DNA from: Okeania sp.
GTDB lineage: Bacteria > Cyanobacteriota > Cyanobacteriia > Cyanobacteriales > Microcoleaceae
NCBI RefSeq assembly: GCF_035285525.1
Contig: NZ_JAYKGW010000173.1
Location: forward strand, 1 to 32,000
Direction: 5' to 3'
Length of the DNA: 32,000 bases
Part shown: piece after piece, positions 6,821 to 30,698 of the stretch
How the letters are laid out: each line of letters starts with the position of its first letter
Position numbering within the stretch: position 1 is the first letter of the stretch
The notes under the pieces: model-generated
Databases searched by the model: none
Told to the model about the DNA's origin: nothing
The model's input: the letters and a program-made list of their open reading frames with translations, nothing else
Position numbers and translations under genes: made by a program

Positions 6821-7964
6821 CTATGATTGAATTATAAAATCTCTAGCCCCAGGTAGGGGAACATCTGTAAAAGTAGCAAACTTTCCACCATTACCAAAAC
6901 CATTAGCTCTACCATTAGGATTGTAATATAAATCTCCACTGGAAAAATCGTAAACAATTTCTGCACTGCTTCTAGCAACTTCATCCTTACTATCAACAAC
7001 TGCAAATTCTCTGATAACATTAAAACCTCTACCACTACGACTATTTAAACTGGTAAAAGTGGTTTTGTCCAGAACAATTTTGTCCTGGTTTAATACAAAA
7101 TCTGTGATAGTATCTACTCCTACATCATTGCGACGAAAACGCATATCTGTTTCATAAATAAGTTTATCTTTTCCTTTACCACCAACGAAAGTATCATTAC
7201 CACCTCCACCATTAATATCATCCCTCCCACTTTCACCTATTAATAAATCTCTTCCAGCACCACCAATTAAAGTATCATGATCTGAACCGCCATTAATTTC
7301 ATCATTACCTCTTCCACCATTGAGAGTATCTTTAACTCCTCCGCCTACAATAACTTCATTTTTTTAGTTCCTGAAAGTTTATCATTTCCAAAACTACCTG
7401 GAAGTAAATTTTCTGAATTTTCTACTAGCGCTTCTACACGAATATTGTCAAAAAAAACATCTCCAGTTACTCCACCTGAACTTATAAAATCTTCAAACTT
7501 CAAGTGAATTTATTCACCAATTGTGAATATAATTTAAATAGATTCCCATTTTCCAGTATCCTGTAAATCAGTAAAATCTTCAGCTCGGTTAATAGTATTT
7601 TGACTTGTTCCAGCAACCCATACATCTGCATTATTTAATTCATTTCCATATCCTACAAATCCACCAAAATCTGTTGCTACGCTTCCTGGTAATCCCAAAC
7701 TAAGATAATCAAAAGATAAACGATATATCCCAAAATTACTATTACTAAACAGAACCGTGAAGGAGTCTTTTGTATAAATATCTCCTCCGTTTCCAAAACC
7801 ACTAAATGAAATAACTTGGTCATTTTGTAGTGAAGTGGGTCATTAGTAATAAATCCTGTAAAAGAACCTCCAGATTTTCCAGTCCAACGAGATAAGTTTG
7901 ACTCAAAATTTTCAAAAAAGATTGTTTCAAAAGTAAAATTTTTAGCCATCAAGTTTTTCTTCAA
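6821..7964 (-). pseudogene. Decayed RTX-type calcium-binding repeat protein gene
   Basis: Hand translation gives MAKNFTFETIFFENFESNLSRWTGKSGGSFTGFITNDP in one frame. A frameshift near 7840 leads to PTSLQNDQVISFSGFGNGGDIY..FFDNIRVEA in a second frame, which has in-frame stops at 7534-7536 and 7510-7512. A second frameshift occurs in a T7 run at 7359-7365. The third frame reads GGGVKDTLNGGRGNDEINGGSDHDTLIGGAGRDLLIGESGRDDINGGGGNDTFVGGKGKD (GGxGxD nonapeptides) and continues into the listed 6821-7144 ORF. Confidence 0.8.
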
Positions 7965-13740: not shown

Positions 13741-14748
13741 TTAAATAAATACCTGAAGTTGTTTGATATAAGTGGCTAAAATATTCAGAGTTATCGCCAC
13801 TAGGGCAACGAGACTTATATATTTTAAACCGCCTTTTTTCCAATATAACAAGGAATCATTTACCAGTGTAATCATAGCAATAACCACTAATAAATTTAAG
13901 CCTCGGAAGGGAACCAATGTCGGATTATATTGTAGTAACAATAACTCAACGCCCCAAACATAAACCACACTCATAAATAATACCAAACCATAACGATTAA
14001 GTCCGATAGTGAGACTATAGCGACAAATCAGCCAACTTAAACTTCCAACTAAAAGACATCCTAGCAAAAAAGTAACAGCACTTAGAGGTTCCATTAACAA
14101 AGCAGCAGCAGCAGGAAGAACAATATAACCCCCAGAGCGTACTGATGACCTCTGGTAAATCAAGTAACTTAAAACCAAGACTAAACCAAATTGCAGTAGG
14201 GGATAACTGAACTCAATATCTAATGTTTCTGCATAAGCAGGATGTACTATATTAAAATCTATATCTAACCAATACCAACCTAACCAATAAATTGTTGCTA
14301 CTATTCCCCCGGTAAATAGTGTAGTGATGCCAACACCTTGAACCACTCTCAACTGTTTTTGTTTCGTCCAACTGAAGGCAATGATAGCAGGAATTAAACT
14401 TCCTGTCATACCTTCCTCAGAGAATTGCACCCAACCCAAGTTGTCGTATAAGATGGCAAGGGGATAGACTAAGCAGAGAGACATGATAGCCAGAATATAC
14501 ATTGGTGTCCGAGGTTGTAACGATTTCAAATGGCTAAAATATCGTTGATAGAGAGAAAATAAGATAAAAGCCAAACCTATTAAGCTAATACCCCATATAG
14601 GGGATAATATAATTGTTACTACTAACAATCCTGGAACAATAACCCCTCCAGGAACTATGCCTTCATTATCTTTATAATAAATGGCTGCAAAAGCACCGAT
14701 GAGCAATGCTAAACGGGTAATTTCTGAGGTGTTGAGGAATTCAAACAT
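13741..14748 (-). CDS. PgsC/CapC-like polytopic membrane protein, apparently internally duplicated
   Basis: 335 aa and very hydrophobic. The N-terminal half has NEGIVPGGVIVPGLL, which resembles Bacillus CapC/PgsC EKTGIVPAGLVVPGYL. The second half repeats the theme (SGGYIVLPAAAALL). It overlaps the pgsB-like stop by 40 nt. Confidence 0.65.
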   Translation of the reverse strand: MFEFLNTSEITRLALLIGAFAAIYYKDNEGIVPGGVIVPGLLVVTIILSPIWGISLIGLAFILFSLYQRYFSHLKSLQPRTPMYILAIMSLCLVYPLAILYDNLGWVQFSEEGMTGSLIPAIIAFSWTKQKQLRVVQGVGITTLFTGGIVATIYWLGWYWLDIDFNIVHPAYAETLDIEFSYPLLQFGLVLVLSYLIYQRSSVRSGGYIVLPAAAALLMEPLSAVTFLLGCLLVGSLSWLICRYSLTIGLNRYGLVLFMSVVYVWGVELLLLQYNPTLVPFRGLNLLVVIAMITLVNDSLLYWKKGGLKYISLVALVAITLNILATYIKQLQVFI

Positions 14749-16016
14749 ACTTTCTGTTTTGCTTTTTTGTGTTTTGCTTTTTTGTGTTTTGCTTTTTTGT
14801 CTGTTTCTAAAATCGGACTTTGAACTAAAGTTTGGAATAAAGTCAAAAGTTTTTGTGCTTGAGGAGTATGGATGTTAACAGCTCCTACTAATAGAATATT
14901 TTTCTTCTCTATTGTTTGGGTAATTTGGGTGAGTAAACTGGTGGCAGGGGAATCTTTATAAACAGTTGAATCACCTAATAACAATAGACGTTCTGGGGTA
15001 GCAGTGAAAAACTTTTCTACTTCTGCTTCGCAACTTCCTATAGTCACAACTCGGTCAAAGTTCATGCTTTGGCTGAGTCGAGCAAATAAGTTGACTCGTG
15101 GTAGTCTATCAGAACGGTTGTTCAGTAAGACAACTTTGGCGTGTTGAGGATATTGGGCAAAAATTCGCTGGCAGAGTAATTGAAAACTTTCTCTATCGTT
15201 GACAGCAAATAAATTAGCCCAAATAATGTTAGAGTCTTTCCAGTTAATAGGTTCCAATTTCAATGCACTTTCATCGTTAAGAGTTTGCCACATAGCTCGC
15301 AACGCTCGTTTTCTAGGAACTTTTAATAGGTTGGCAACTTCCAGAGCGATCGCCACATTTTCTTCTATGGCAACTGCACTAAACCCTTTTAAATCTGTAG
15401 TTTTGATTTGACTAGAGTCTACAGCAATAAGTTTAGTTCCCCTCTTTTCTGCCTCAGTCTGGAGAATTTTGAGTAATTCCGGGTTGGACTCAGATGTAAT
15501 TAGCTTACCATTTCTGGGAATAGTGGCTGCTAGGGAATAGGCTATTTCTTCCAGAGTTTCTCCTAGATAGTCTGGATGATCGTAGCGAACATTGGTAATA
15601 ATTCCCAGATCAGAGCGCATGACTTTTTGTTCCAACCATTCTGCATAGACTGGGTTAATAGCCATACATTCCATAACCACAGCTTCTGCTCCTTGGCGAA
15701 AAAAACTCCGCATTACATCTACTTGCTCGTTAACGTTAGGATAACCTTTCCGCTCCCAAACAGATTCTTTACCGTTAGGATGAATAATATGGGCGGTACT
15801 ACCAGTAATTTTGCCAAAGGTTTTATAACCTGCTGCTTGCACAACTGCTGCTACATAACGGGTTACGGTTGATTTACCCCGAATCCCATTCACATGAACT
15901 CGATACAAAATTTGGTCTCGTTTTTGACGAAATTGCTGATAGCGAATTAGCAAGTATAGAAAATAGATACCTAAGCTAGCAAAGGTAACAAAGAAAGGTA
16001 TAGCCTCCTTAAACAT
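14709..16016 (-). CDS. pgsB: Poly-gamma-glutamate synthase PgsB/CapB-like (Mur-ligase family)
   Basis: It has an N-terminal TM helix. VHVNGIRGKSTVTRYVAAVVQAAGYKTFGKITGS and VMECMAINPVY match Bacillus PgsB (VNINGIRGKSTVTRL..GYKT.GKTTG, ECMAVNP). I prefer ATG 16016, which has GGAGGGAGG 10-20 nt upstream, over the TTG at 16028 used by the ORF track. Confidence 0.85.
   Translation of the reverse strand: MFKEAIPFFVTFASLGIYFLYLLIRYQQFRQKRDQILYRVHVNGIRGKSTVTRYVAAVVQAAGYKTFGKITGSTAHIIHPNGKESVWERKGYPNVNEQVDVMRSFFRQGAEAVVMECMAINPVYAEWLEQKVMRSDLGIITNVRYDHPDYLGETLEEIAYSLAATIPRNGKLITSESNPELLKILQTEAEKRGTKLIAVDSSQIKTTDLKGFSAVAIEENVAIALEVANLLKVPRKRALRAMWQTLNDESALKLEPINWKDSNIIWANLFAVNDRESFQLLCQRIFAQYPQHAKVVLLNNRSDRLPRVNLFARLSQSMNFDRVVTIGSCEAEVEKFFTATPERLLLLGDSTVYKDSPATSLLTQITQTIEKKNILLVGAVNIHTPQAQKLLTLFQTLVQSPILETDKKAKHKKAKHKKAKQKVCLNSSTPQKLPV
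14756..14800. repeat. 3 x 15-bp tandem repeat inside the 3' end of pgsB-like
   Basis: gttttgcttttttgt repeats three times exactly. On the minus strand it encodes KKAKHKKAKHKKAKQ. It sits 8 nt upstream of the pgsC-like ATG. Confidence 0.95.
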
Positions 16017-16279
16017 CTGAAATTTCAACCTCCCTCCTAATTTATGTATAAAGTTGGCTTCGCCCGGTTATTTTGGCTTATTAAATTCGACACACTGGTT
16101 TTTCCAATCTCCAGGACTTACGCAGCCACCTATAGTGTTTAAAACCCCATACGCAATAGTTTATATAGAAACCTTATGGTATCTTTACAAAGCTGTGTTT
16201 TTTTGCCTAAGTCAGGAGTCAACTCACCCCTAACCCCGACCGTGGAGGGGAAATAAGGAAAAAGCTAGAAAAATAGTCT

Positions 16280-16618
16280 TATAGTTATTCTGAATAAGAA
16301 TGAAACATTTTTTGAGCTGAAACCTTTTAACAGTAATAAATTATTGTCTCAGTCTAAACCAGAATGACTATATATTCACCATCTCCCCATCTCCCCATCT
16401 CACCATCTCACTATCTCACCATCTCTTTACCTATTTACCTATTTAATGCCAAACACTCTTAGGTCAGAACTAGCCACAGATCCTGATGTATTGTTACCAA
16501 AATAACGTTTACTTAGATCAACTTTTATAGTTATTCTGAATAAGAATGAAACATTTTTTGAGCTGAAACCCTTTGACAGCAATAAATTATTGTCTCAGTC
16601 TAAAACAGAATGACTATA
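16280..16618. repeat. Two 93-bp MITE-like direct repeats flanking an octamer array
   Basis: tatagttattctgaataagaatgaaacattttttgagctgaaacc.ttt.acag.aataaattattgtctcagtctaaa.cagaatgactata occurs at 16280-16372 and 16526-16618. Each unit has terminal inverted repeats TATAGTTATTCTG/CAGAATGACTATA. The CCATCTC(C/A) octamer array lies at 16377-16425. Confidence 0.9.
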
Positions 16619-16639
16619 GTCATTCCAGTACGGTTCCCT

Positions 16640-16735
16640 AAAAATCATGCATTGTAGGATTTTGGGCATTTCGAGGGGTAGAAAACAAAAGGAAGATTCT
16701 TCTGTACGGACGTTGCATCCAATGTCCCTACTCTT
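16640..16735 (+). repeat. Partial copy of the dispersed repeat family
   Basis: gattcttctgtacggacgttgcatccaatgtccctac matches copy A at 1045-1085. Confidence 0.7.
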
Positions 16736-16759
16736 CTATGATTCCCATTCCCATAATGA

Positions 16760-16840
16760 TTCTGACTTCTGGCTTCTGGCTTCTGGATTCTGGCTCCTGG
16801 CTCCTGGCTTCTGGCTCCTGGATTCTGGCTCCTGGCTTCT
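16760..16840. repeat. Heptamer tandem array (TTCTGGC/TCCTGGC)
   Basis: ttctgacttctggcttctggcttctggattctggctcctggctcctggcttctggctcctggattctggctcctggcttct. It runs up to the capA-like stop codon (16839-16841). Confidence 0.9.
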
Positions 16841-19202
16841 AGAACTTAGGCTGAAGAGCCATGAAAGTAAGATGGAGTTTAACTGTACCAGGCTCCCCTG
16901 ATAATCTTAAAAAGTCATGGCCGTGAGGAATCTGAAACTGAATCAGATTTTTCAACTCTAGAGGTTTTTCCCAACTGACACAAGCCAGGTCATCAAACAT
17001 GGCTATTCCTTTCCCTTTTTGGGGAGGATAGTGACGCAGCCAGAGCATTAAAGCACGGGGGTTATCTTTTTTAGGATTGACCACCTGTTCCAATTTCCGA
17101 TCTTTGGGCACAGATAAGTCTACCACGATGGGTTCCCAATCAAAAGTATGACCAGGGTGAGTAAAAATAATCTCATCTCCAAAAGCTTGTTCTCCTTCAC
17201 TGGCACGATAGCGGACTTTTAGTTGGATACTGCCTGCATTTTCCCCCTTTACATATCCAACTAGGGTCAAATCTTTCTTTGGGCGATCGCTTGCATCTCC
17301 AAATACCCGGATTCTTTCCCGAAACTGAGTTACGGCTATCTGATGATTTTTGGCCGAGCGCTCTAGACAAATTCCTGTGGTGCCTCTATGTGCCCCCTGA
17401 TGACAGGCAAAGGATGTCTTACCTTTCTGAGAGACTCCCCAACGATTAATATCTTGTACTTCTGAGTCTATGTCCCAATCTTCTACTTCGCCAAATATCA
17501 TTAAGTCTCTGCCCAAACTGATTTGGTAGATTTCATCTGTACTTGCTTGGACTTGGTATAGAGATGCTTCACTGGGGGCGATTGCTCGTAAATCTACTAA
17601 TGCCCATCCATTTTCATTTATCATAACAGGAACATCAAAACTGTATTTTTTGATACTAATATTAGATTTGTCTACTCCTGTGAGAGAAACCGAACCCCGA
17701 TTTAAATAAGGATAAACAAGGACTCCATCACGAGAAAATTCTCCTATTCTGCGGATAAAGCGATTTGCTAGGTCTCCTCCAATAATTTGGGGGCGATAAT
17801 CTTCTAAATAAATGGGTATTACTTGGAGTTTGGTCACTTCTTCTGACTGAACATCTACCAGAGCTACTAATTCCAGGAAGGTCTCCAAGCGGTCAGAGTC
17901 AAAAACTAAGTTGCCAAGGCTATAAAATAAGGGAACGCCATGACGAAACCCTAAACCTTGAGGCAGATGGGGATGATGTCCCACAATTAACCCTGCTCCA
18001 GCATTAGCAACTTTGTCCATCAAGTTTTCGACATAAGATGTGGGGGCAAAAGTATATTCAGTACCTGCGTGTAACTGGACAATAGGAAATCGCCCTTGGT
18101 TTTTTTCCTGGGCAATTAAGTTTTCTACCGTAGCTATATCCCGGAGGTCTGCTGCACCTCCCTGATTTTCAGTAGCTACAAACTGTAGAGGTTCTGGATA
18201 GCGATCGCCGGCAATGGAAGAAAAAGAAAATAGAGAATATTCTGTGTTTCCTAAGTTAAGGCGATAAGGTTCTTGAGCTGTAGTTGGAGTAAGTCCGGCA
18301 CCGCTGTAAGCTAGACCAATATGTTGTAAATTTTCGATAGTGGTAGTTAACCCAGATGCTAAATAATCCCAAAGGTGGTTATTTCCCAAGGCGACATAGT
18401 TAACCCCTAACTTGTAGAGTTGTTCGACTGATTCGGGGAGGGTGAAAAAACTGTATGGTTTAGCCCAATGGGGTGTTTTGGGGTGATCTAGAACTGGGGT
18501 TTCCAAATTTACGCTACGAAAGTCGCTGAAGTTATTCTGAAATAAAGGTTGTAAACCTTCTAGCACTTTAGCACTGCCATTTTGAGGATGGGAAGCTTGA
18601 ATTAGAGCATCAGGATTATTTGGAGGAATTTTATTCCGGGGAGTTTTCTCTTCTGGATCGAGAAACCGCCTACCCATTGCCACATCTCCTCCAAATAGAA
18701 ATCTAGTTTTTGATTCTGTCCGTTTTACCAAAGGAAGAGGTGGAACTTCCACTTGAGAGATTGTTAGAGGTAATGATAAAACTAGAGGAACAATTTCCCG
18801 ATCAAACTTAGGAGTATCAATTTTTAAAAGTTGGTTATGACGAGGTGCAGAGGGAAAGAAATACTCTCCCAAAATATTAGTAACTGTTTCTGTCTCTCCC
18901 AGACGAACCGGAATATTACTCAGGGGAGTATCTCCAGTTGCGACTATTCTGCCTTTTACTTGAATGGGAGTGTTCTGATACTGACGCACTAGCTCCATTT
19001 CTTCAGCTACCAAGGGGTTGAGAAATTCTTGGAGAGACCAAGCTTGGGCTGGTGCGGGATAAAGATATAGGGTTAGGAAAAAGAATATTGCTAGACAAAT
19101 AATTTTTTTTCCTAATACAACGCTTCCGGTTGTTAAGAGGTACATCCATCGTGGGCAAGATGCTCGCACTACAAGATTTTGATTGTTTACCCTGTATATC
19201 AT
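16839..19202 (-). CDS. capA: CapA/PgsA-family metallophosphoesterase-fold protein with long N- and C-terminal extensions
   Basis: 787 aa. The CapA core spans about residues 168-470: FLFGGDVAMGRRF, VNLETPV, VALGNNHLWDY, IVQLHAGTEY, LIVGHHPHLPQG, YSLGNLVFD. The N-terminus is signal/TM-like (an alternative start is ATG 19145, MYLLTTGSVVLGKKIICLAIFFFLTLYLYPAPAQA). About 320 aa of C-terminal sequence has no motif I recognise. Confidence 0.85.
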   Translation of the reverse strand: MIYRVNNQNLVVRASCPRWMYLLTTGSVVLGKKIICLAIFFFLTLYLYPAPAQAWSLQEFLNPLVAEEMELVRQYQNTPIQVKGRIVATGDTPLSNIPVRLGETETVTNILGEYFFPSAPRHNQLLKIDTPKFDREIVPLVLSLPLTISQVEVPPLPLVKRTESKTRFLFGGDVAMGRRFLDPEEKTPRNKIPPNNPDALIQASHPQNGSAKVLEGLQPLFQNNFSDFRSVNLETPVLDHPKTPHWAKPYSFFTLPESVEQLYKLGVNYVALGNNHLWDYLASGLTTTIENLQHIGLAYSGAGLTPTTAQEPYRLNLGNTEYSLFSFSSIAGDRYPEPLQFVATENQGGAADLRDIATVENLIAQEKNQGRFPIVQLHAGTEYTFAPTSYVENLMDKVANAGAGLIVGHHPHLPQGLGFRHGVPLFYSLGNLVFDSDRLETFLELVALVDVQSEEVTKLQVIPIYLEDYRPQIIGGDLANRFIRRIGEFSRDGVLVYPYLNRGSVSLTGVDKSNISIKKYSFDVPVMINENGWALVDLRAIAPSEASLYQVQASTDEIYQISLGRDLMIFGEVEDWDIDSEVQDINRWGVSQKGKTSFACHQGAHRGTTGICLERSAKNHQIAVTQFRERIRVFGDASDRPKKDLTLVGYVKGENAGSIQLKVRYRASEGEQAFGDEIIFTHPGHTFDWEPIVVDLSVPKDRKLEQVVNPKKDNPRALMLWLRHYPPQKGKGIAMFDDLACVSWEKPLELKNLIQFQIPHGHDFLRLSGEPGTVKLHLTFMALQPKF

Positions 19203-24428: not shown

Positions 24429-27400
24429 ATGAATCCCAGTCCCGAACCACAAATTAATTATTTCCGAGAATGGACTAATAGCTGTGTTGATGACCAATTA
24501 ATTAAGCTCAATGTTGTCCCTTTAGAAGGACAAGAACCTTATGAATTTTTATTTTATTCTGATGCTATTCCGCGACGCAATGATGGTCGAGTAACGAGCG
24601 AAATATTAAGGCGATATGAACATATTGAGGAAGGTGGATGGTGGTGTTCTGGAATTGATTTATTGTCCGGAGAGGAGGACCTTTGGGGTTGTTTTAAGCC
24701 TAGTCAACCACGTCATAGTTACGACGAAAAAAAGTTAATTAAATACGAACATCCTCCGAAGACTCCTACGAGTTTATTTGCTCTGAAAATTCCTCTACAT
24801 TTATGGCAGAAAATAGCTGGTCGTTATCAATTAGAAATTCTTCGGGAAGATATCGATCATAATCAACCAGATTTGGGTTTTTGGCAGTGGTTTATGAAGC
24901 ATCCTGAGATTCCTTTATGTATTACTGAAGGAGCGAAAAAAGCGGGTGCTTTACTAACAGCATCTTATGTGGCTATTGCTTTACCAGGAGTATTTGGGGG
25001 ATATCGAGTTTTGAGAGATGAATATGGGAATCGTATTGGCAAAGCAAATTTAATTCCTCAGTTAGAAAAGTTGATTAATAATCATCGAGAAGTTTATATT
25101 GTATTTGACCAAGATACTAAACCGAAAACTATTAAAAATGTTAATGCTGCGATTAGAAAAACTGGATATTTACTGGCTAGAAAAGGATGTAATGTTAAAG
25201 TAGTTTCCTGGAATCCAGAGTTAGGAAAGGGAGTTGATGATTTAATCGCTAATCAGGGAAAAAATGTTTTTGATGAAGTTTATGAAAAGGCTTTACTTTT
25301 AGAACTTTGGAAAGCTAAATCATTTATTCGTCTCACATATCCTGTAAATTTGAGGGTTAATAGTCGTTATCTTTCAGAAGAGAATATTTTTAGTTCTTTA
25401 GGCAATAAGAATTTACAGAAGTTAGATAATCTGGATTTAGCTTATAGTACAAATTTTCCAGCCAAACTTGTAGGGATAAAATCTGCTAAAGGAACTGGAA
25501 AAACTAAATTATTAGAAAAAATAGTTGCGGAAGCTGTAGCTAGGAATAAAAAAGTTTTAGTTATCGGTCATCGGGTACAGTTAGTACAAGAATTATGTCA
25601 ACGTTTTGGATTGAAATATATTACAGAAGCCAATTCAGAATCTCCAGATAATTTATTAGGTTTAGGTTTATGTATTGACTCTTTACATCCTAATTCCCAA
25701 GCAAATTTTAATCCAGAAACTTGGTCAGATGGAGTAGTAATTATTGATGAAATTGAACAGGTAATTTGGCATGGTTTAAATTCTAATACTTGTCGGCAAA
25801 ATAGAGTAGAAATTCTCAGATGTTTTAAAACATTAATGCAAAATGTTTTAGGAGGAGTTGGTCAAGTATTTATAGCTGATTCTGACTTAAGCGATATTTC
25901 CATAGATTATTTAGCAGCTTTAGCAGGAATAAAAGTAGAACCTTTTATTATTCAAAATGATTGGTTGCCTGGAGAAAAAGAAGCTTGGCAAATTTTTAAT
26001 TATCCAGAAACAACTCCCAAAAAATTAATAGCAGATTTACACAAACATATTTCTGAAGGTGGCAAACCAATGGTTTGTTTATCGGCGCAAAAATTAACAA
26101 GTAAATGGGGAACTCGTGCTTTGGAAGCTTATCTGAAAAAACAGTTTCCCCAGTTCAAAATATTGAGAATAGATTCGGAATCTTTAGCTGAACCAAATCA
26201 TCCTGCTTATGGTTGTATTAAATCATTAAATCAAGTCTTACCAACATACGATATTGTGTTAGCTTCTCCCTCAATTGAAACTGGAGTTAGTGTCGATATT
26301 CAAGGGCATTTTACTTCAGTTTGGGCAATTGCTCAGGGGGTGCAGGGAGCAACTTCTGTTTGTCAATCTTTGGGGAGAGTTCGTGAGAATATTCCGAGAT
26401 ATTTATGGGTAGCAAATTCTGGTTTTAATAAGGTCGGTAATGGTTCGACTTCTATCACTTCTTTGCTCAATTCTGAAGAACGTTTGACTCAACTAAATAT
26501 TAGATTATTACAACAATCTGATTTTGATAGTTTGGACGATTTAGAAGTAAATTTTCAACCAGAATCTTTTTTGTGTTGGGCAAAAATGGCGGTACGTTTT
26601 AATGCGGGAATGAATAAATATCGAGAATCTGTTTTAGAATTTTTACAAAAAGAAGGGCATCAGATTAAAGAAATTTCTACAGAAGTTTTATCCGATAATT
26701 CAGAAGCAGAAAAATCATCGGAAACTCCGATAGAAGTTAATAATTTCCAGGAAGTTATAGACACCGTAATTAAACAAAATTATCAGAGAGAATGTGAGGC
26801 GATCGCTACGGCGAAAAATATTAGTTTATCTGAGTATGAGAAACTCAAAAAAAGATTATCAAAACCAATTCAAAAACAACGGGAACAACGGAAATTTCAA
26901 TTAATGTTACGTTATAATATTCCTATAACTACTGAATTAGTTGAAAAAGATGATGAAGGTTGGTACGAACAGTTAGAATTACATTATTTTCTGACAGTAG
27001 GACGACCATATTTAGGAGCGCGAGATAAGGAAGTTGCCAAAAAATTGTTGGATTTAGGTAAAGGTAATATTTTTATTCCTGATTTTAATGATTGTTTATT
27101 AGGGGCAATTATTGGGGTAATGGAATTATTAAAAATCCCCTCGTTATTGAAGGATAAAAACCGGGAGTTGAAAAATATAGATCCAGATTTACAGTTGTTA
27201 GGAAAAACAGCTTTGGCAAATAGAAATGAAATTAAAACTATATTAGGAATAGGGTTAGCTGCTAGTTCGAGTCCGATTATAATTGTGCGACGTTTTTTAG
27301 AGAAAATTGGTTATAGTTTAGAATTTTTACGAACAGAAACTCATCAGAAAAAACGATTGAGAATTTATCGGATTGTTAATGCTGATGATGGTAGATTTGA

Positions 27401-27455
27401 AATATTTCAGCAATGGTTAAGTGGGGGGAAATTAGAGTCCAGTAGGGTGTGTTAG
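24429..27455 (+). CDS. CyRepA-type replication protein (N-terminal Toprim-like/DUF3854 domain + P-loop helicase-like domain)
   Basis: 1008 aa. The N-terminus has EWTNSCVDDQLIKLNV..GGWWCSGIDL..FKPSQPR..LIKYEHPPK. Toprim-like motifs are ITEGAKKAGALL and IVFDQDTKPKT..GKGVDDLI. Walker A is SAKGTGKTK (about 25480-25508) and Walker B is VVIIDEIEQ (about 25735-25760). This architecture matches cyanobacterial plasmid Rep proteins annotated as the CyRepA1 family. Confidence 0.8.
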   Translation: MNPSPEPQINYFREWTNSCVDDQLIKLNVVPLEGQEPYEFLFYSDAIPRRNDGRVTSEILRRYEHIEEGGWWCSGIDLLSGEEDLWGCFKPSQPRHSYDEKKLIKYEHPPKTPTSLFALKIPLHLWQKIAGRYQLEILREDIDHNQPDLGFWQWFMKHPEIPLCITEGAKKAGALLTASYVAIALPGVFGGYRVLRDEYGNRIGKANLIPQLEKLINNHREVYIVFDQDTKPKTIKNVNAAIRKTGYLLARKGCNVKVVSWNPELGKGVDDLIANQGKNVFDEVYEKALLLELWKAKSFIRLTYPVNLRVNSRYLSEENIFSSLGNKNLQKLDNLDLAYSTNFPAKLVGIKSAKGTGKTKLLEKIVAEAVARNKKVLVIGHRVQLVQELCQRFGLKYITEANSESPDNLLGLGLCIDSLHPNSQANFNPETWSDGVVIIDEIEQVIWHGLNSNTCRQNRVEILRCFKTLMQNVLGGVGQVFIADSDLSDISIDYLAALAGIKVEPFIIQNDWLPGEKEAWQIFNYPETTPKKLIADLHKHISEGGKPMVCLSAQKLTSKWGTRALEAYLKKQFPQFKILRIDSESLAEPNHPAYGCIKSLNQVLPTYDIVLASPSIETGVSVDIQGHFTSVWAIAQGVQGATSVCQSLGRVRENIPRYLWVANSGFNKVGNGSTSITSLLNSEERLTQLNIRLLQQSDFDSLDDLEVNFQPESFLCWAKMAVRFNAGMNKYRESVLEFLQKEGHQIKEISTEVLSDNSEAEKSSETPIEVNNFQEVIDTVIKQNYQRECEAIATAKNISLSEYEKLKKRLSKPIQKQREQRKFQLMLRYNIPITTELVEKDDEGWYEQLELHYFLTVGRPYLGARDKEVAKKLLDLGKGNIFIPDFNDCLLGAIIGVMELLKIPSLLKDKNRELKNIDPDLQLLGKTALANRNEIKTILGIGLAASSSPIIIVRRFLEKIGYSLEFLRTETHQKKRLRIYRIVNADDGRFEIFQQWLSGGKLESSRVC

Positions 27456-27584
27456 GCGCTAGCCGTAACGCACCGCTATTAAATTAATTGAAAAGTCATA
27501 TAAGGAATTAATAATCGAGTAATCTGTAGGGTAGTTTAAGCATTCCTAAAAGATGGTGCGTTACGCTCCGCTAACACACCCTAC
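27442..27584. repeat. Large imperfect inverted repeat (cyanobacterial GTAGGGTG..CGTAACGCACC palindromic element)
   Basis: The left arm GTAGGGTGTGTTAGGCGCTAGCCGTAACGCACC (27442-27474) contains the last 4 codons and the stop of the Rep gene. The right arm GGTGCGTTACGCTCCGCTAACACACCCTAC lies at 27555-27584. The outer 14 nt and inner 11 nt are perfectly complementary. Confidence 0.85.
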
Positions 27585-27718
27585 TAGCTATAACTTTTGG
27601 AATTGATTCGCTTTAATTTTATATTTTTCATGGCTGACTCAGGGTATGCTATCCTTATTTTATAACTAGATGAAAGTTAAGAGCAAATTCTAAATATATA
27701 TTAGCAGAGGTAAAATCA

Positions 27719-28912
27719 ATGACAACTAATATAGACATTATAAAAAATACAAGAATAGACATCATAAAAGATACAAGAGCTAATTGTTATTCTGCAATGG
27801 TTCAATTGAATGTAGCAGAATATTTAAAAATGGTAGAAAAAGTATTTAAAAAGAAAGGAGGTTTAGAAGGACAAAGAGACACTTTAAAAACAAGAACAGC
27901 TATTAGGACTCGCCAGAGAATGATTGATGATTTGAAAAAAGGAGCTATACTACCGCCAATAGTTCTAGGAGTTATTACTTCAGAAGAAGAGTTATCTACT
28001 ATTGATAGATTAGATAGAAATGAATTACTAAATGTCATCAATAATCCTGAAAATAGCATATCTATCATTGATGGAATGCAAAGAACAACTGCTTTATATG
28101 AAGCTAAACAAGATACTAATATTAGCGATAATAAAGTTCGGGTAGAATTTTGGATAGCATCTCAAGTAAATAGCTTAATCTATCGAATGTTAGTATTAAA
28201 TACAGGGCAAATTCCTTGGAACTTGAAAAGACAAATTGAAACTGTTTTTCAAGCAAATTTGAAGGAACTAAAAGCAAAATTTCCAGATATAGATATTATC
28301 AAAGTTGATGACCAAGGAAAACGTAGAAATCCTCGTCAATATCATGCTAATAAAGTTATTGAGCTATTTCTAGTATTCGGTGCTAGAAAGGAAAAAGTTG
28401 ACCTACAAGAGACATTAGCTGAAGAGTTTACTAAACAAGACTTTATAGAGTCAGTAGCTAATCCTGATTTTACAAATATATTCTATGAAGTAATGGGATA
28501 TCTAGCTGACTTCGATCTAGCTATATCTGCGTATAAAAATACAAATGAAGAGGGAGATTTTAAAGAAGGTAAAGACTTATTTAGTAGTCATTCAGCTTGT
28601 ATTGGTTTTGTAACTTCTATTGCTATATATGTAAAAGGTAGACCTGGTAATGATTATGATTTAGAAAAACAAAATACAAGATGGAATAAAATAAAAAATA
28701 ATGCTCATCAACTTTTAGAAAAACTAAAAAAAATGGAACCTATTGAAATAGCTGATTTTTTAGATTTTTCAACTCTTAATGAACTGATTAGCAGAAAAAT
28801 AGGTAAACCTCATAATTTTGAAAGAGAGTTTTTTTTAAAGGCTTTTAAATTATTGATAGAGGATAATTTTAGTGTTGAAACAATGACAGAATGTTGGAGA
28901 GCTTACGACTAA
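27719..28912 (+). CDS. DndB/DGQHR-like ParB-fold protein (DUF262-related), orphan
   Basis: 397 aa. It has CYSAMVQLNVAEYLKMV, then LEGQRDTLKTRTAIRTRQRMIDDL, PPIVLGV, and SIIDGMQRTTALYEA (D118-G-M-Q-R). This order and spacing resemble the DGQHR/DGQQR signature region of DndB and DUF262 proteins. The assignment is by motif only. Confidence 0.6.
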   Translation: MTTNIDIIKNTRIDIIKDTRANCYSAMVQLNVAEYLKMVEKVFKKKGGLEGQRDTLKTRTAIRTRQRMIDDLKKGAILPPIVLGVITSEEELSTIDRLDRNELLNVINNPENSISIIDGMQRTTALYEAKQDTNISDNKVRVEFWIASQVNSLIYRMLVLNTGQIPWNLKRQIETVFQANLKELKAKFPDIDIIKVDDQGKRRNPRQYHANKVIELFLVFGARKEKVDLQETLAEEFTKQDFIESVANPDFTNIFYEVMGYLADFDLAISAYKNTNEEGDFKEGKDLFSSHSACIGFVTSIAIYVKGRPGNDYDLEKQNTRWNKIKNNAHQLLEKLKKMEPIEIADFLDFSTLNELISRKIGKPHNFEREFFLKAFKLLIEDNFSVETMTECWRAYD

Positions 28913-28919
28913 TACCAAT

Positions 28920-30008
28920 ATGTCTAGAAATATGATCGAAGCCAATAAATATATATTCAATCAATTAGCTAATTTTGTTGAAGAAAGCAAAATTGATGAT
29001 ACTTTTGATAGACAAAAAAAACGCTATATCGAAACTAATGATGAAGACAAGGAGTGGTTAAAAAAATTAAAAATAACCAACAAAAAATATCCAATTTTAC
29101 CAAATTTTCAAACAGCATCTTTTCAATATGGAGGTAATGATTATTTTGTAGCTATTGGTGTAAAGGAGAATTTAGAAATCAATCAAGAAGAATTTATTCA
29201 ACCTCTAGAATTGAATCCAGGTATATTTACGGCTTTATTATTTGAACTGAAAATATCGGTCGATCAAAAAGCTAATCCTCTTGAAATTACAAATGATTTT
29301 TTTAATGAAGGTGGATATAATTTCCATCAAGTAAAAGATTTTTTTGAACCAATCTTTGTTTATAAAATTCCTAAAAATTCTCCTTTTTTAAGTTTAGATA
29401 ACATAAATATTGCCAGAATTTCTGGTTTCTATGCTGTTAAAAGCAGCCAAGTAATATCATTAAAATTTTTACCAAATACTCTAAATGAATTTGAAAAGCT
29501 ATTCATTGAAGGTTCAAATAATATCCCCTATGAAAGTTTACTATTTAGCTTAGTTTCTGTTTCCTGGAAATATTCATTTCTTGATATTTACAGATGTATT
29601 GAAAGATTATTTCCTATATCAGCATTAGAAGACTTACACAAAAAATTGAAGATTGAATACTCTCTCCTAAACTTTGCTGATGATATTGAGTCTTCTATTG
29701 GTTGGAGACCAAAAGAAAATGAAGCATTGAATAAACTGATTAATAATAATAGTTCTCTTGAAATAGCACGTCAGATACTTCGCGAAGTCAAAGATAATAT
29801 TGAAGGTACAGAAAAGGGAAAACTTGGAGATTTTGTCTATGGCATTCGTAATTCAATAGTGCATTTTAGACCTGCCACAAAGCAAAATAAATTAGATGAT
29901 AATAATTGGGATATGTTAATCTATTCATCTTTGCTAATTATTGAATATTGGTATGAAAAATATGAACCACAATTTACAGATAGTAATTTTAATGATAATG
30001 AGACTTAA
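28920..30008 (+). CDS. Protein with C-terminal HEPN-like domain (Rx4H motif)
   Basis: 362 aa. It starts 7 nt after the upstream stop. FVYGIRNSIVHFRP (R310-N-S-I-V-H315, nt 29847-29864) fits the HEPN R-x4-6-H catalytic motif in its R-N-x-x-x-H form. The preceding predicted helices are SWKYSFLDIYRCIERLF and ENEALNKLINN. The N-terminal ~200 aa are unassigned. Confidence 0.55.
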   Translation: MSRNMIEANKYIFNQLANFVEESKIDDTFDRQKKRYIETNDEDKEWLKKLKITNKKYPILPNFQTASFQYGGNDYFVAIGVKENLEINQEEFIQPLELNPGIFTALLFELKISVDQKANPLEITNDFFNEGGYNFHQVKDFFEPIFVYKIPKNSPFLSLDNINIARISGFYAVKSSQVISLKFLPNTLNEFEKLFIEGSNNIPYESLLFSLVSVSWKYSFLDIYRCIERLFPISALEDLHKKLKIEYSLLNFADDIESSIGWRPKENEALNKLINNNSSLEIARQILREVKDNIEGTEKGKLGDFVYGIRNSIVHFRPATKQNKLDDNNWDMLIYSSLLIIEYWYEKYEPQFTDSNFNDNET

Positions 30009-30012
30009 TTTT

Positions 30013-30057
30013 GTAAGCATTCAGCTATTAAATGAACCTGAATGCTTACTTGATTTT
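30013..30057 (+). terminator. Rho-independent terminator of the DndB-like/HEPN bicistron
   Basis: GTAAGCATTCAG (30013-30024) pairs with CTGAATGCTTAC (30038-30049), followed by ttgatttt. It starts 5 nt after the stop codon. Confidence 0.65.
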
Positions 30058-30105: not shown

Positions 30106-30698
30106 ATGCAAATTCAACAAAAAAAAACTACACTTCCATCGAATATCTAAACCTTAAAACTAACTCACAAGAACGACACGAATACATTAATGGTGAAATT
30201 ATTCATATAACTTCTGGAACTCCAAATCATAATCAAATTGCCCTTAACTTCAGCGCATCTTTAAATTTTTCCCTTAAACGTCAACCCTATCGAGTTTTTG
30301 TTTTAGACCAACGACTTTGGATTCTGAAAAAACGCATTTATACTTATCCTGATGTTATGGTAACTCCAGGAAATTTACAACTACAACAAGGAAGAAAAGA
30401 CACCATTACCAACCCTATAATAATTGCTGAAGTTTTGTCAAATTCAACTAGAAATTATGACAAAGATGAAAAATTTTCAGCTTATCGAACTATTCCTACA
30501 TTTCAAGAATATCTACTCATAGACCAATACACAATTCCAGTCGAACAATATCACAAAACTGCTCAAAAAAAGTGGATTTTTTCAGAATATAACGAACTCG
30601 AAGAAACTATCTCTCTCAACTCAATTGATTTTCAAATAACCTTGGCAGATATTTACGATCAAGTTGAATTTGAAATAATAGAAAACAGCGATAATTAG
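30106..30698 (+). pseudogene. Uma2-family (DUF820) endonuclease gene with a 1-nt frameshift in an A9 run
   Basis: ATG 30106 gives MQIQQKK, then a stop at 30148. The other frame, from the A-run (30119-30127), reads KKNYTSIEYLNLKTNSQERHEYINGEIIHITSGTPNHNQIALNFSASLNFSLKRQPYRVFVLDQRLWILKKRIYTYPDVMVTPG and continues into the listed 30357-30698 ORF (..RKDTITNPIIIAEVLSNSTRNYDKDEKFSAYRTIPTFQEYLLIDQ). These are typical Uma2 motifs. Confidence 0.75.

Follow-up and report, generated by a model that had tools for sequence, protein, structure and literature searches.

A probable Dazbog-family gene pair in the marine cyanobacterium Okeania, with a predicted HEPN-like site in DzbB

Dazbog is a two-gene anti-phage system described by Millman et al. 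(2022), in which two adjacent co-directional genes, dzbA before dzbB, encode proteins of 394 and 357 aa. In the Dazbog table of the 2022 preprint, DzbA is labelled 'DndB' and DzbB 'hypothetical'. Bacillus Dazbog protects against phages when expressed from its native promoter, and the defence disappears once the DUF262 gene is lost. It shows abortive-infection behaviour, becomes toxic when the SPR DNA cytosine methylase is co-expressed, and is escaped by phages that have lost CCGG methylation, while reviews of 2025–2026 call its mechanism unclear. Here we analyse a gene pair of the same layout in Okeania sp., located in a stretch of 32,000 nt (contig NZ_JAYKGW010000173.1, positions 1–32,000, forward strand) that we refer to as the window. 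Both proteins are entered at NCBI as 'hypothetical protein', on a contig of 53.8 kb. The two open reading frames (ORFs) and their diagnostic motifs are as follows.

27719–28912, + strand: dzbA-like gene (ORF1), 397 aa; DUF262/ParB-type NTPase-like domain at about residues 20–225, then a helical C-terminal domain
28070–28084, + strand: DGMQR motif (D118–R122) of ORF1, a predicted DUF262 'DGQQR'-type nucleotide-binding motif
28920–30008, + strand: dzbB-like gene (ORF2), 362 aa; alpha/beta domain at about residues 1–180, then an all-helical HEPN-like domain at about 185–352
29589–29603, + strand: Y224-R-C-I-E228 of ORF2, at the end of helix 216–228; E228 is the candidate HEPN helix-2 acidic residue
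29847–29864, + strand: R310-N-S-I-V-H315 of ORF2, R-x4-H with a polar residue after R; predicted RNase catalytic residues

The genes are separated by a 7-nt spacer (28913–28919), with 263 bp of non-coding DNA upstream of ORF1 (27456–27718) and the codons of R310 and H315 at nt 29847–29849 and 29862–29864. An earlier reading made from the sequence alone (the sequence-only reading) had placed the ORFs, the 7-nt gap, an upstream region of about 260 bp, DGMQR and R310/H315 at these positions, and all of this was confirmed.

The assignment to Dazbog rests on matches to PADLOC profile hidden Markov models (HMMs), listed at E <= 1, and on comparison with verified Dazbog proteins of Bacillus mycoides GOE9 and B. 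cereus FORC_013 from the supplement of the preprint. ORF1 matched the DzbA profile (PDLC03835) with an E-value of 1.7e-57 (residues 14–394 on profile positions 6–383 of 393), and ORF2 matched the DzbB profile (PDLC03836) with an E-value of 2.9e-8 and 31.5 bits (residues 135–315 on positions 114–305 of 341); no other profile in PADLOC-DB matched either protein at this threshold. ORF1 aligned end to end with GOE9 DzbA by blastp (28% identity over 396 columns, E 4e-23), and comparison by family HMM was also full length, with 92.9 bits. The ORF2 family HMM gave 21.6 bits against GOE9 DzbB (residues 223–327) and 18–22 bits against GOE9 and FORC_013 DzbB together, in each case over the C-terminal domain only. 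The DzbB profile itself was matched by 34 of 40 ORF2 relatives and, in a larger set, by 113 of 139. A plasmid-borne B. cereus pair that scores 399 bits with DzbA and 163 bits with DzbB carries both DGMQR and an RNTIVH motif.

The Okeania pair thus shares with Dazbog the order and sizes of the genes, homology over the whole of DzbA with its D-G-x-Q-R and LNTGQ motifs, and homology over the C-terminal domain of DzbB with Y-x3-E and R-N-x3-H. It differs in that its DzbA is just 28% identical, the N-terminal half of its DzbB has no detectable similarity to Bacillus DzbB, and it comes from a cyanobacterium of the Oscillatoriales, which the 2022 list does not contain. That list does hold cyanobacteria in eight rows (six Nostocales and one Synechococcales among them), with Anabaena cylindrica PCC 7122, Cyanobium gracile PCC 6307 and Dolichospermum circinale ACBU02 as examples. 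Rhodobacterales and Flavobacteriales are listed too, and the relatives found here fall in the same groups. We conclude that the pair is very probably a divergent cyanobacterial member of the catalogued Dazbog family, and both 'hypothetical' proteins can be annotated as a defence pair of Dazbog type from the bloom-forming marine Okeania/Trichodesmium lineage. The sequence-only reading had taken the pair for an undescribed, orphan system and had said that membership of a catalogued system would lower that claim; given the PADLOC matches, the comparison with verified proteins and the cyanobacteria already in the 2022 table, the claim has to be given up.

ORF2 was aligned with its relatives, giving a set of 139 diverse sequences, including the plasmid-borne B. 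cereus DzbB, with a mean column identity of 17%. Only five columns are invariant, namely Y224, E228, Y307, R310 and H315, and N311 is conserved in at least 90% of the sequences; the verified Bacillus DzbB proteins have RNLYVH together with Y-x3-E. It is conservation, here and for DGMQR in ORF1 (see below), and not their mere presence, that lifts the motifs above chance. The published HEPN criterion is R-x4-6-H with a polar residue (N, D or H) after the arginine (PMC3710099), and RNSIVH of ORF2 has this form. The structure model of ORF2 (predicted local distance difference test, pLDDT, 91.3; predicted template modelling score, pTM, 0.88) has an alpha/beta N-terminal domain and an all-helical C-terminal domain, where helix 302–314 ends at R310-N311 and H315 lies in the loop before helix 327–352. 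Helical inserts separate this region from helix 216–228, which ends at E228, and the placement of R310/H315 and E228 agrees with the published HEPN geometry (PMC3710099). Sub-threshold matches of the ORF2 family were found to HEPN_Apea (10 of 139 sequences), pEK499_p136, MAE_28990 and Cas13a, along with scattered matches, equally weak, to unrelated models. In our judgement, the motif conservation and the model make it quite probable that the C-terminal domain of ORF2 is a HEPN domain. The HEPN call of the sequence-only reading therefore stands as far as the conserved R-N-x3-H and its HEPN-like placement go, and lacks confirmation of the fold by structure search.

A literature search of incomplete coverage returned no statement that DzbB is HEPN-like; two papers that use both terms do not connect them, and a 2024 survey of 18 HEPN-containing systems does not include Dazbog. 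The HEPN-like nature of DzbB thus appears to be the new point of this analysis, with prior mention elsewhere possible, for example in the DefenseFinder documentation. The invariant Y/E pair and Y-x2-R-x4-H of DzbB relatives point to a HEPN-like RNase site and offer a directly mutable handle. Four DzbB homologues from Nostocaceae, Dolichospermum and Desulfonema (P0071, P0075, P0078 and P0087), two of which are encoded at L024:5001-6224 and L018:2496-3731, carry insertions of 30–50 residues just before the R-x4-H helix; this variable segment may face a phage factor or a ligand.

ORF1 was compared with the DUF262 and DndB families. It matched Pfam GmrSD_N (DUF262, PF03235) with an E-value of 1.4e-5 and 25.8 bits against a gathering score of 33.2, and precomputed database annotation gives PF03235 for P0121, a protein identical to ORF1. 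In 24 ORF1 homologues, Q52-R53 (of EGQR), D118-G-M-Q-R122 and L160-N-T-G-Q164 are invariant; the B. cereus plasmid DzbA has DGMQR and two verified Bacillus DzbA proteins have the variant DGLQR. In the ORF1 model (pLDDT 81), DGMQR lies at a strand-to-helix junction, and Foldseek against the PDB ranked the solved DUF262 enzymes BrxU and SspE at the top with non-significant E-values of 0.07–1. PDB sequence-profile searches with the family alignments of ORF1 and ORF2 returned nothing. No DUF1524 nuclease was found in ORF1, there is no Pfam match past residue 222, and the C-terminal half has no histidine that is invariant among the 24 homologues. The description of ORF1 as a DUF262/ParB-type protein that lacks a DUF1524 nuclease, judged from its motifs and profile matches, therefore seems largely right. 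The earlier placement in the DndB/DGQHR branch of the ParB fold appears to hold in the sense of a DUF262/ParB-type protein and fails for strict DndB/DGQHR membership, as the TIGR03187 model gave 19.7 bits against a cut-off of 58.85.

These features suggest the following mechanism. DNA modification by a phage cytosine methylase would lead to arrest of growth or to abortive infection, as has been shown in Bacillus and would be expected to apply here. The DUF262/ParB-type NTPase domain of DzbA, with EGQR, DGMQR and LNTGQ, may read the DNA modification by analogy with SspE, GmrSD and BrxU. Those enzymes have a DUF1524 nuclease in cis; DzbA has none and would instead control DzbB in trans. DzbB would then provide the catalytic output, as its invariant residues and the model suggest, with the C-terminal HEPN signature (E228, R310, N311 and H315) cutting RNA, probably tRNA or mRNA, so that translation stops. 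The 7-nt coupling would keep the two proteins stoichiometric, and a complex in which each restrains the other until the trigger arrives is probable. On balance, we consider it likely that the locus is a mobile two-gene cassette of the Dazbog family, with its own leader and terminator, that works in this way. For the individual steps we are less certain: that the HEPN-like site of DzbB, recognised from conservation and the model, is the effector seems marginally better than an even proposition, and that DzbB is an active HEPN ribonuclease switched in trans by the DUF262 NTPase DzbA is evenly balanced. If true, Dazbog would be a split, RNA-targeting counterpart of the GmrSD/SspE-type modification sensors, and the cyanobacterial and proteobacterial clade, in which the N-terminal domain of DzbB has no sequence relationship to that of Bacillus, could sense a different cue.

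Several observations weigh against this reading. Cyanobacterial DNA is itself heavily methylated, so the trigger in this cyanobacterium may differ from that of Bacillus Dazbog. The DzbB match is weak and covers about half of ORF2. A link between ORF2 and Bacillus DzbB is absent at the level of single sequences, as blastp gave E-values of 0.01–0.02, jackhmmer from B. cereus DzbB into the ORF2 family found nothing, and hhalign of the ORF2 family with one B. cereus DzbB gave an alignment of the motif alone, with a probability of 30%. As only the C-terminal domain is demonstrably homologous, the N-terminal domain, for which no similarity to Bacillus DzbB was detected, may differ in function. No curated HEPN threshold is reached, with HEPN_Apea at 17.8 bits against 24.4 and a best E-value of 3.5e-4 among the 139 relatives. 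Foldseek with the whole ORF2 model found nothing in the PDB or BFVD at E <= 0.001, with the HEPN proteins HepS (E about 3–4) and a viral RNase LS-like protein (E 0.27) only at non-significant values; a small helical domain that contains a large insert is probably ill served by a query with the entire chain. Finally, Millman et al. reported a failure to transform the ΔdzbB construct, 'possibly due to toxicity', and grouped it with the antitoxin deletions ΔpsyrA, ΔshosA and ΔrmrA.

The ΔdzbB result suggests that DzbA alone is harmful and fits poorly with a toxic effector role for DzbB only. It leaves two options, mutual restraint of the proteins within a complex or DzbA as the component that does the harm. 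The second is the basis of the strongest alternative, Dazbog with the roles reversed, in which DzbA is toxic, for example through NTP/dNTP hydrolysis or DNA clamping, and DzbB restrains it as a regulator, antitoxin or sensor whose R-x4-H site serves ligand or RNA sensing and not killing. Besides the listing of ΔdzbB with known antitoxin deletions, this alternative draws on a review that tabulates DUF262 as an NTPase with dNTP hydrolysis and on the faster evolution of DzbB than of DzbA (see below), as is often seen in sensors that face phage factors. However, DzbA has no recognisable nuclease or toxin domain, the invariant residues of DzbB form a catalytic-type HEPN set that is awkward for a pure regulator, and the untransformable construct is an isolated negative result that the literature searched does not take up again. 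We therefore regard reversed roles as unlikely, a minority reading next to DzbB as the HEPN effector. The same report conflicts with the earlier idea that ORF2 is a toxin rescued by ORF1, and the puzzle of DzbB as an RNase against the apparent toxicity of its deletion is sharpened.

Three further features bear on the pair as a unit of its own.

27645–27718, + strand: upstream leader with a probable promoter and ribosome-binding site, in DNA homologous to that of relatives
27731–27778, + strand: 24-nt tandem duplication at the 5' end of dzbA (Tandem Repeats Finder: period 24, 2 copies, 91% match)
30013–30057, + strand: probable terminator hairpin, then UUGAUUUU; 12-bp perfect stem (30013–30024/30038–30049) and 13-nt loop

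Alignment of five upstream regions showed that AAATATATA at 27691–27699 and GAGGT at 27707–27711 are kept in relatives; a promoter consensus scan scored no better than shuffled sequence. The hairpin 3' of the ORF2 stop codon has a folding energy of -16.6 kcal/mol (z = -5.8), and none of 200 shuffles was equally stable, in agreement with the earlier observation of a hairpin and T-run directly after the second gene. A simple terminator scan did not pick it up because of the long loop. With UUGAUUUU it is a probable intrinsic terminator of the bicistron; it is partly kept in the relative L001 and absent from Trichodesmium L002. The duplication at the start of dzbA adds eight residues (IDIIKNTR/IDIIKDTR) that are missing from homologues, which are 8–9 aa shorter and whose alignment with ORF1 begins at residue 20; the segment is a low-confidence region of the structure model.

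The G+C content of the pair is 28.3%, compared with 34.8% for the window and 31–42% for housekeeping genes, which bears out the description of the pair as markedly AT-rich; the most AT-rich coding DNA of the window consists of the pair and of a methylase fragment at its start. The absence of HIP1 sites from the pair, which had been offered as a sign of horizontal transfer, is correct as an observation (12 sites in the window, none in the pair). We reject it as a sign of foreign origin because just 0.88 sites are expected in the pair and the probability of finding none is 0.42.

ORF2 has about 138 relatives in 90%-identity clusters and 836 in 50%-identity representatives (E <= 1e-3), and a search of a set of 5.8 billion proteins with an ORF2-alignment profile gained almost nothing over the single-sequence search. 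Across 39 loci on contigs chosen as one genome per species, a dzbA-like gene lies immediately 5' of dzbB on the same strand in 36, spanning four phyla (groups represented: Cyanobacteria, Bacteroidota, Desulfobacterales and Alphaproteobacteria), and the three exceptions are truncated or fragmentary copies. Besides Cyanobacteria, the pair was found in Flavobacterium, Chryseobacterium, Muribaculaceae, Desulfobacterales, Devosia, Microvirga and Marinovum. The identities of DzbA and DzbB co-vary across loci (Spearman 0.87), with DzbB diverging faster (mean identity 48% compared to 56%, minimum 24% compared to 38%). Beyond close relatives, no third gene recurs among 150 flanking ORFs from 28 loci. 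These flanks hold mainly housekeeping genes, with only sporadic methyltransferases, and the enrichment in defence islands that the sequence-only reading had proposed to look for cannot be claimed. The co-occurrence of the two families, which it had also proposed to survey, is upheld.

At the DNA level, the homology shared with the closest relatives covers 27645 to about 29993, which takes in both genes and a 75-nt leader; in the leader it begins at 27645 with L003–L005 (Okeania and other cyanobacteria) and at 27678 with Trichodesmium L002. In two relatives the homology continues over the 3' Uma2 gene, and the flanks are otherwise unrelated. With homology limited to leader and genes, unrelated flanks and no recurrent partner, dzbA-dzbB is, on sequence comparison, a self-contained and horizontally moving bicistron, as had been proposed for a two-gene defence or abortive-infection module. 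In 2.9 million viral contigs, one related locus only was found.

Such mobility raises the alternative of a toxin–antitoxin-like addiction module that stabilises a mobile element or plasmid, with phage defence incidental or absent in this host. The pair adjoins a DUF3854/helicase gene of replication type, full-length homologous pairs lie on small plasmids of 15–19 kb in Roseobacter, Sulfitobacter and Xylophilus and on a conjugative plasmid of Pantoea, and the ΔdzbB toxicity report would fit. On the other hand, the close-relative cassettes occupy varied, mostly housekeeping, chromosomal contexts where no replication gene is present, and Bacillus Dazbog, driven by its native promoter, gives protection against phages and reacts to a phage methylase. 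Addiction and defence can also coexist in one system. As an account that replaces defence, the addiction module is improbable.

Still less probable is a new two-gene system that resembles Dazbog merely through common DUF262 and HEPN domains. The partial DzbB profile match, the N-terminal domain of ORF2 and the 'hypothetical' annotation would speak for it, but the homology of DzbA is strong and full length, gene order, sizes and both motif sets are common to verified Dazbog, and Nostocales, Rhodobacterales and Flavobacteriales already appear in the original table. Nor did any other two-gene DUF262 profile match at E <= 1, including that of PD-T4-2 (Vassallo et al. 2022). PD-T4-2 is described as a multi-gene system with HEPN and with DUF262 lacking DUF1524, and shares the logic of a sensor plus an RNase; it is a separate sequence family whose PADLOC models were unmatched, and we therefore rejected membership, as only the DzbA and DzbB profiles were hit. 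The DUF262-plus-HEPN logic is thus already known from PD-T4-2 and from the ParB/DUF262–HEPN associations described in 2013 (PMC3710099). With Dazbog catalogued since 2022, the specialist will find little surprise here; the added value lies in a HEPN active-site hypothesis for an uncharacterised system and in a divergent cyanobacterial clade.

Two further defence systems share single features with the pair. ApeA, an abortive-infection tRNA anticodon nuclease activated by a ligand bound away from the active site, has an N-terminal non-catalytic part followed by a C-terminal HEPN domain; HEPN_Apea is the Pfam HEPN family nearest to ORF2, and a homologue of ORF2 with 55% identity is labelled 'ApeA N-terminal domain-containing protein' in UniRef. 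ApeA, however, acts alone as a large oligomer, whereas ORF2 is always paired with DzbA. Membership was rejected, with HEPN_Apea sub-threshold and no match to ApeA_NTD1 or to a PADLOC ApeA model. Menshen (NsnABC) is likewise a DUF262 defence system lacking DUF1524 and carries the 'DndB' label in the table of Millman et al., but consists of three genes including an ATPase and a variable effector, and nothing comparable flanks the Okeania pair.

The remaining alternative, a DndB-type phosphorothioation regulator or a GmrSD/SspE-type modification-dependent restriction enzyme, is suggested by the weak matches to TIGR03187 (E 5.7e-4) and GmrSD_N, by a homologue of ORF1 named 'DGQHR domain protein' in UniRef and by the top-ranked BrxU and SspE folds, and is effectively refuted by the missing partner genes and nuclease domain. 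DndB (DGQHR, Dnd phosphorothioation) belongs to the same broad ParB/DUF262-like superfamily and differs in having DGQHR where ORF1 has DGMQR; we rejected membership on the sub-cut-off TIGR03187 score and the absence of dnd and ssp genes from the window. No dnd, ssp or dpt gene occurs in the window, in line with the earlier remark that none flanks the pair, or recurs in related loci. The type IV restriction enzymes GmrSD, BrxU and SspE have in common with ORF1 an N-terminal DUF262/ParB-type NTPase domain that reads DNA modification; they were rejected because no DUF1524 His-Me nuclease is fused to the DUF262 domain of ORF1, whose separate catalytic partner is predicted to cut RNA and not DNA.

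Turning to the neighbouring genes, the 5' neighbour (24429–27455) encodes a protein of 1008 aa with DUF3854 (E 3e-53) and a weak P-loop helicase region, which is compatible with the CyRepA-type replication protein named in the sequence-only reading. Primase/helicase replication genes of this type are typical of cyanobacterial plasmids, and the surroundings are otherwise chromosome-like (queA, rubrerythrin and capsule genes), which suggests an integrated element. The gene is not kept beside related dzbA-dzbB cassettes and so is no conserved partner. The 3' neighbour (30107–30698) is a Uma2-family gene, present as described and less decayed than had been stated: it carries one 1-nt deletion, CAACAA-AAAAAAA compared to CAACAACAAAAAAA in Okeania SIO3I5 and Trichodesmium, which puts the gene out of frame after about codon 6, with the other 191 codons open. 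The frameshift could be a very recent pseudogene, a homopolymer sequencing error or a slippery run.

Between the DUF3854/helicase gene and dzbA there is an extended hairpin of about 150 nt (27436–27590; -57 kcal/mol, z = -6.9) with perfect 15-nt arms at 27441–27455 and 27571–27585. It begins within the final codons of the DUF3854/helicase gene, stops about 130 nt 5' of dzbA and lies outside the DNA shared with related cassettes; it may be a terminator or insulator of that gene, or a small repeat element.

The methylase fragment mentioned above (54–896) belongs to a C-5 cytosine DNA methylase gene (Pfam PF00145, E 3.5e-22) that is truncated by the window start, so that its 3' part remains, and with 27.5% G+C the fragment is as AT-rich as the Dazbog pair. 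It deserves attention since a phage C5 methylase is the trigger of Bacillus Dazbog. On the Roseobacter plasmid pTB3, a cytosine methyltransferase lies two genes from the Dazbog pair, and a restriction gene of the NgoPII family adjoins the pair of the B. cereus plasmid. Elsewhere in the window, ARAGORN predicted a tRNA-Ala(UGC) at 6945–7042 that is 98 nt long compared to the usual 73–76 nt. On the minus strand, 13741–19202 holds a poly-gamma-glutamate capsule-like cluster (CapC, a Mur-ligase-type PgsB-like protein and PGA_cap), adjoined by a pentapeptide-repeat protein and an ABC_ATPase/MRB1590-type protein.

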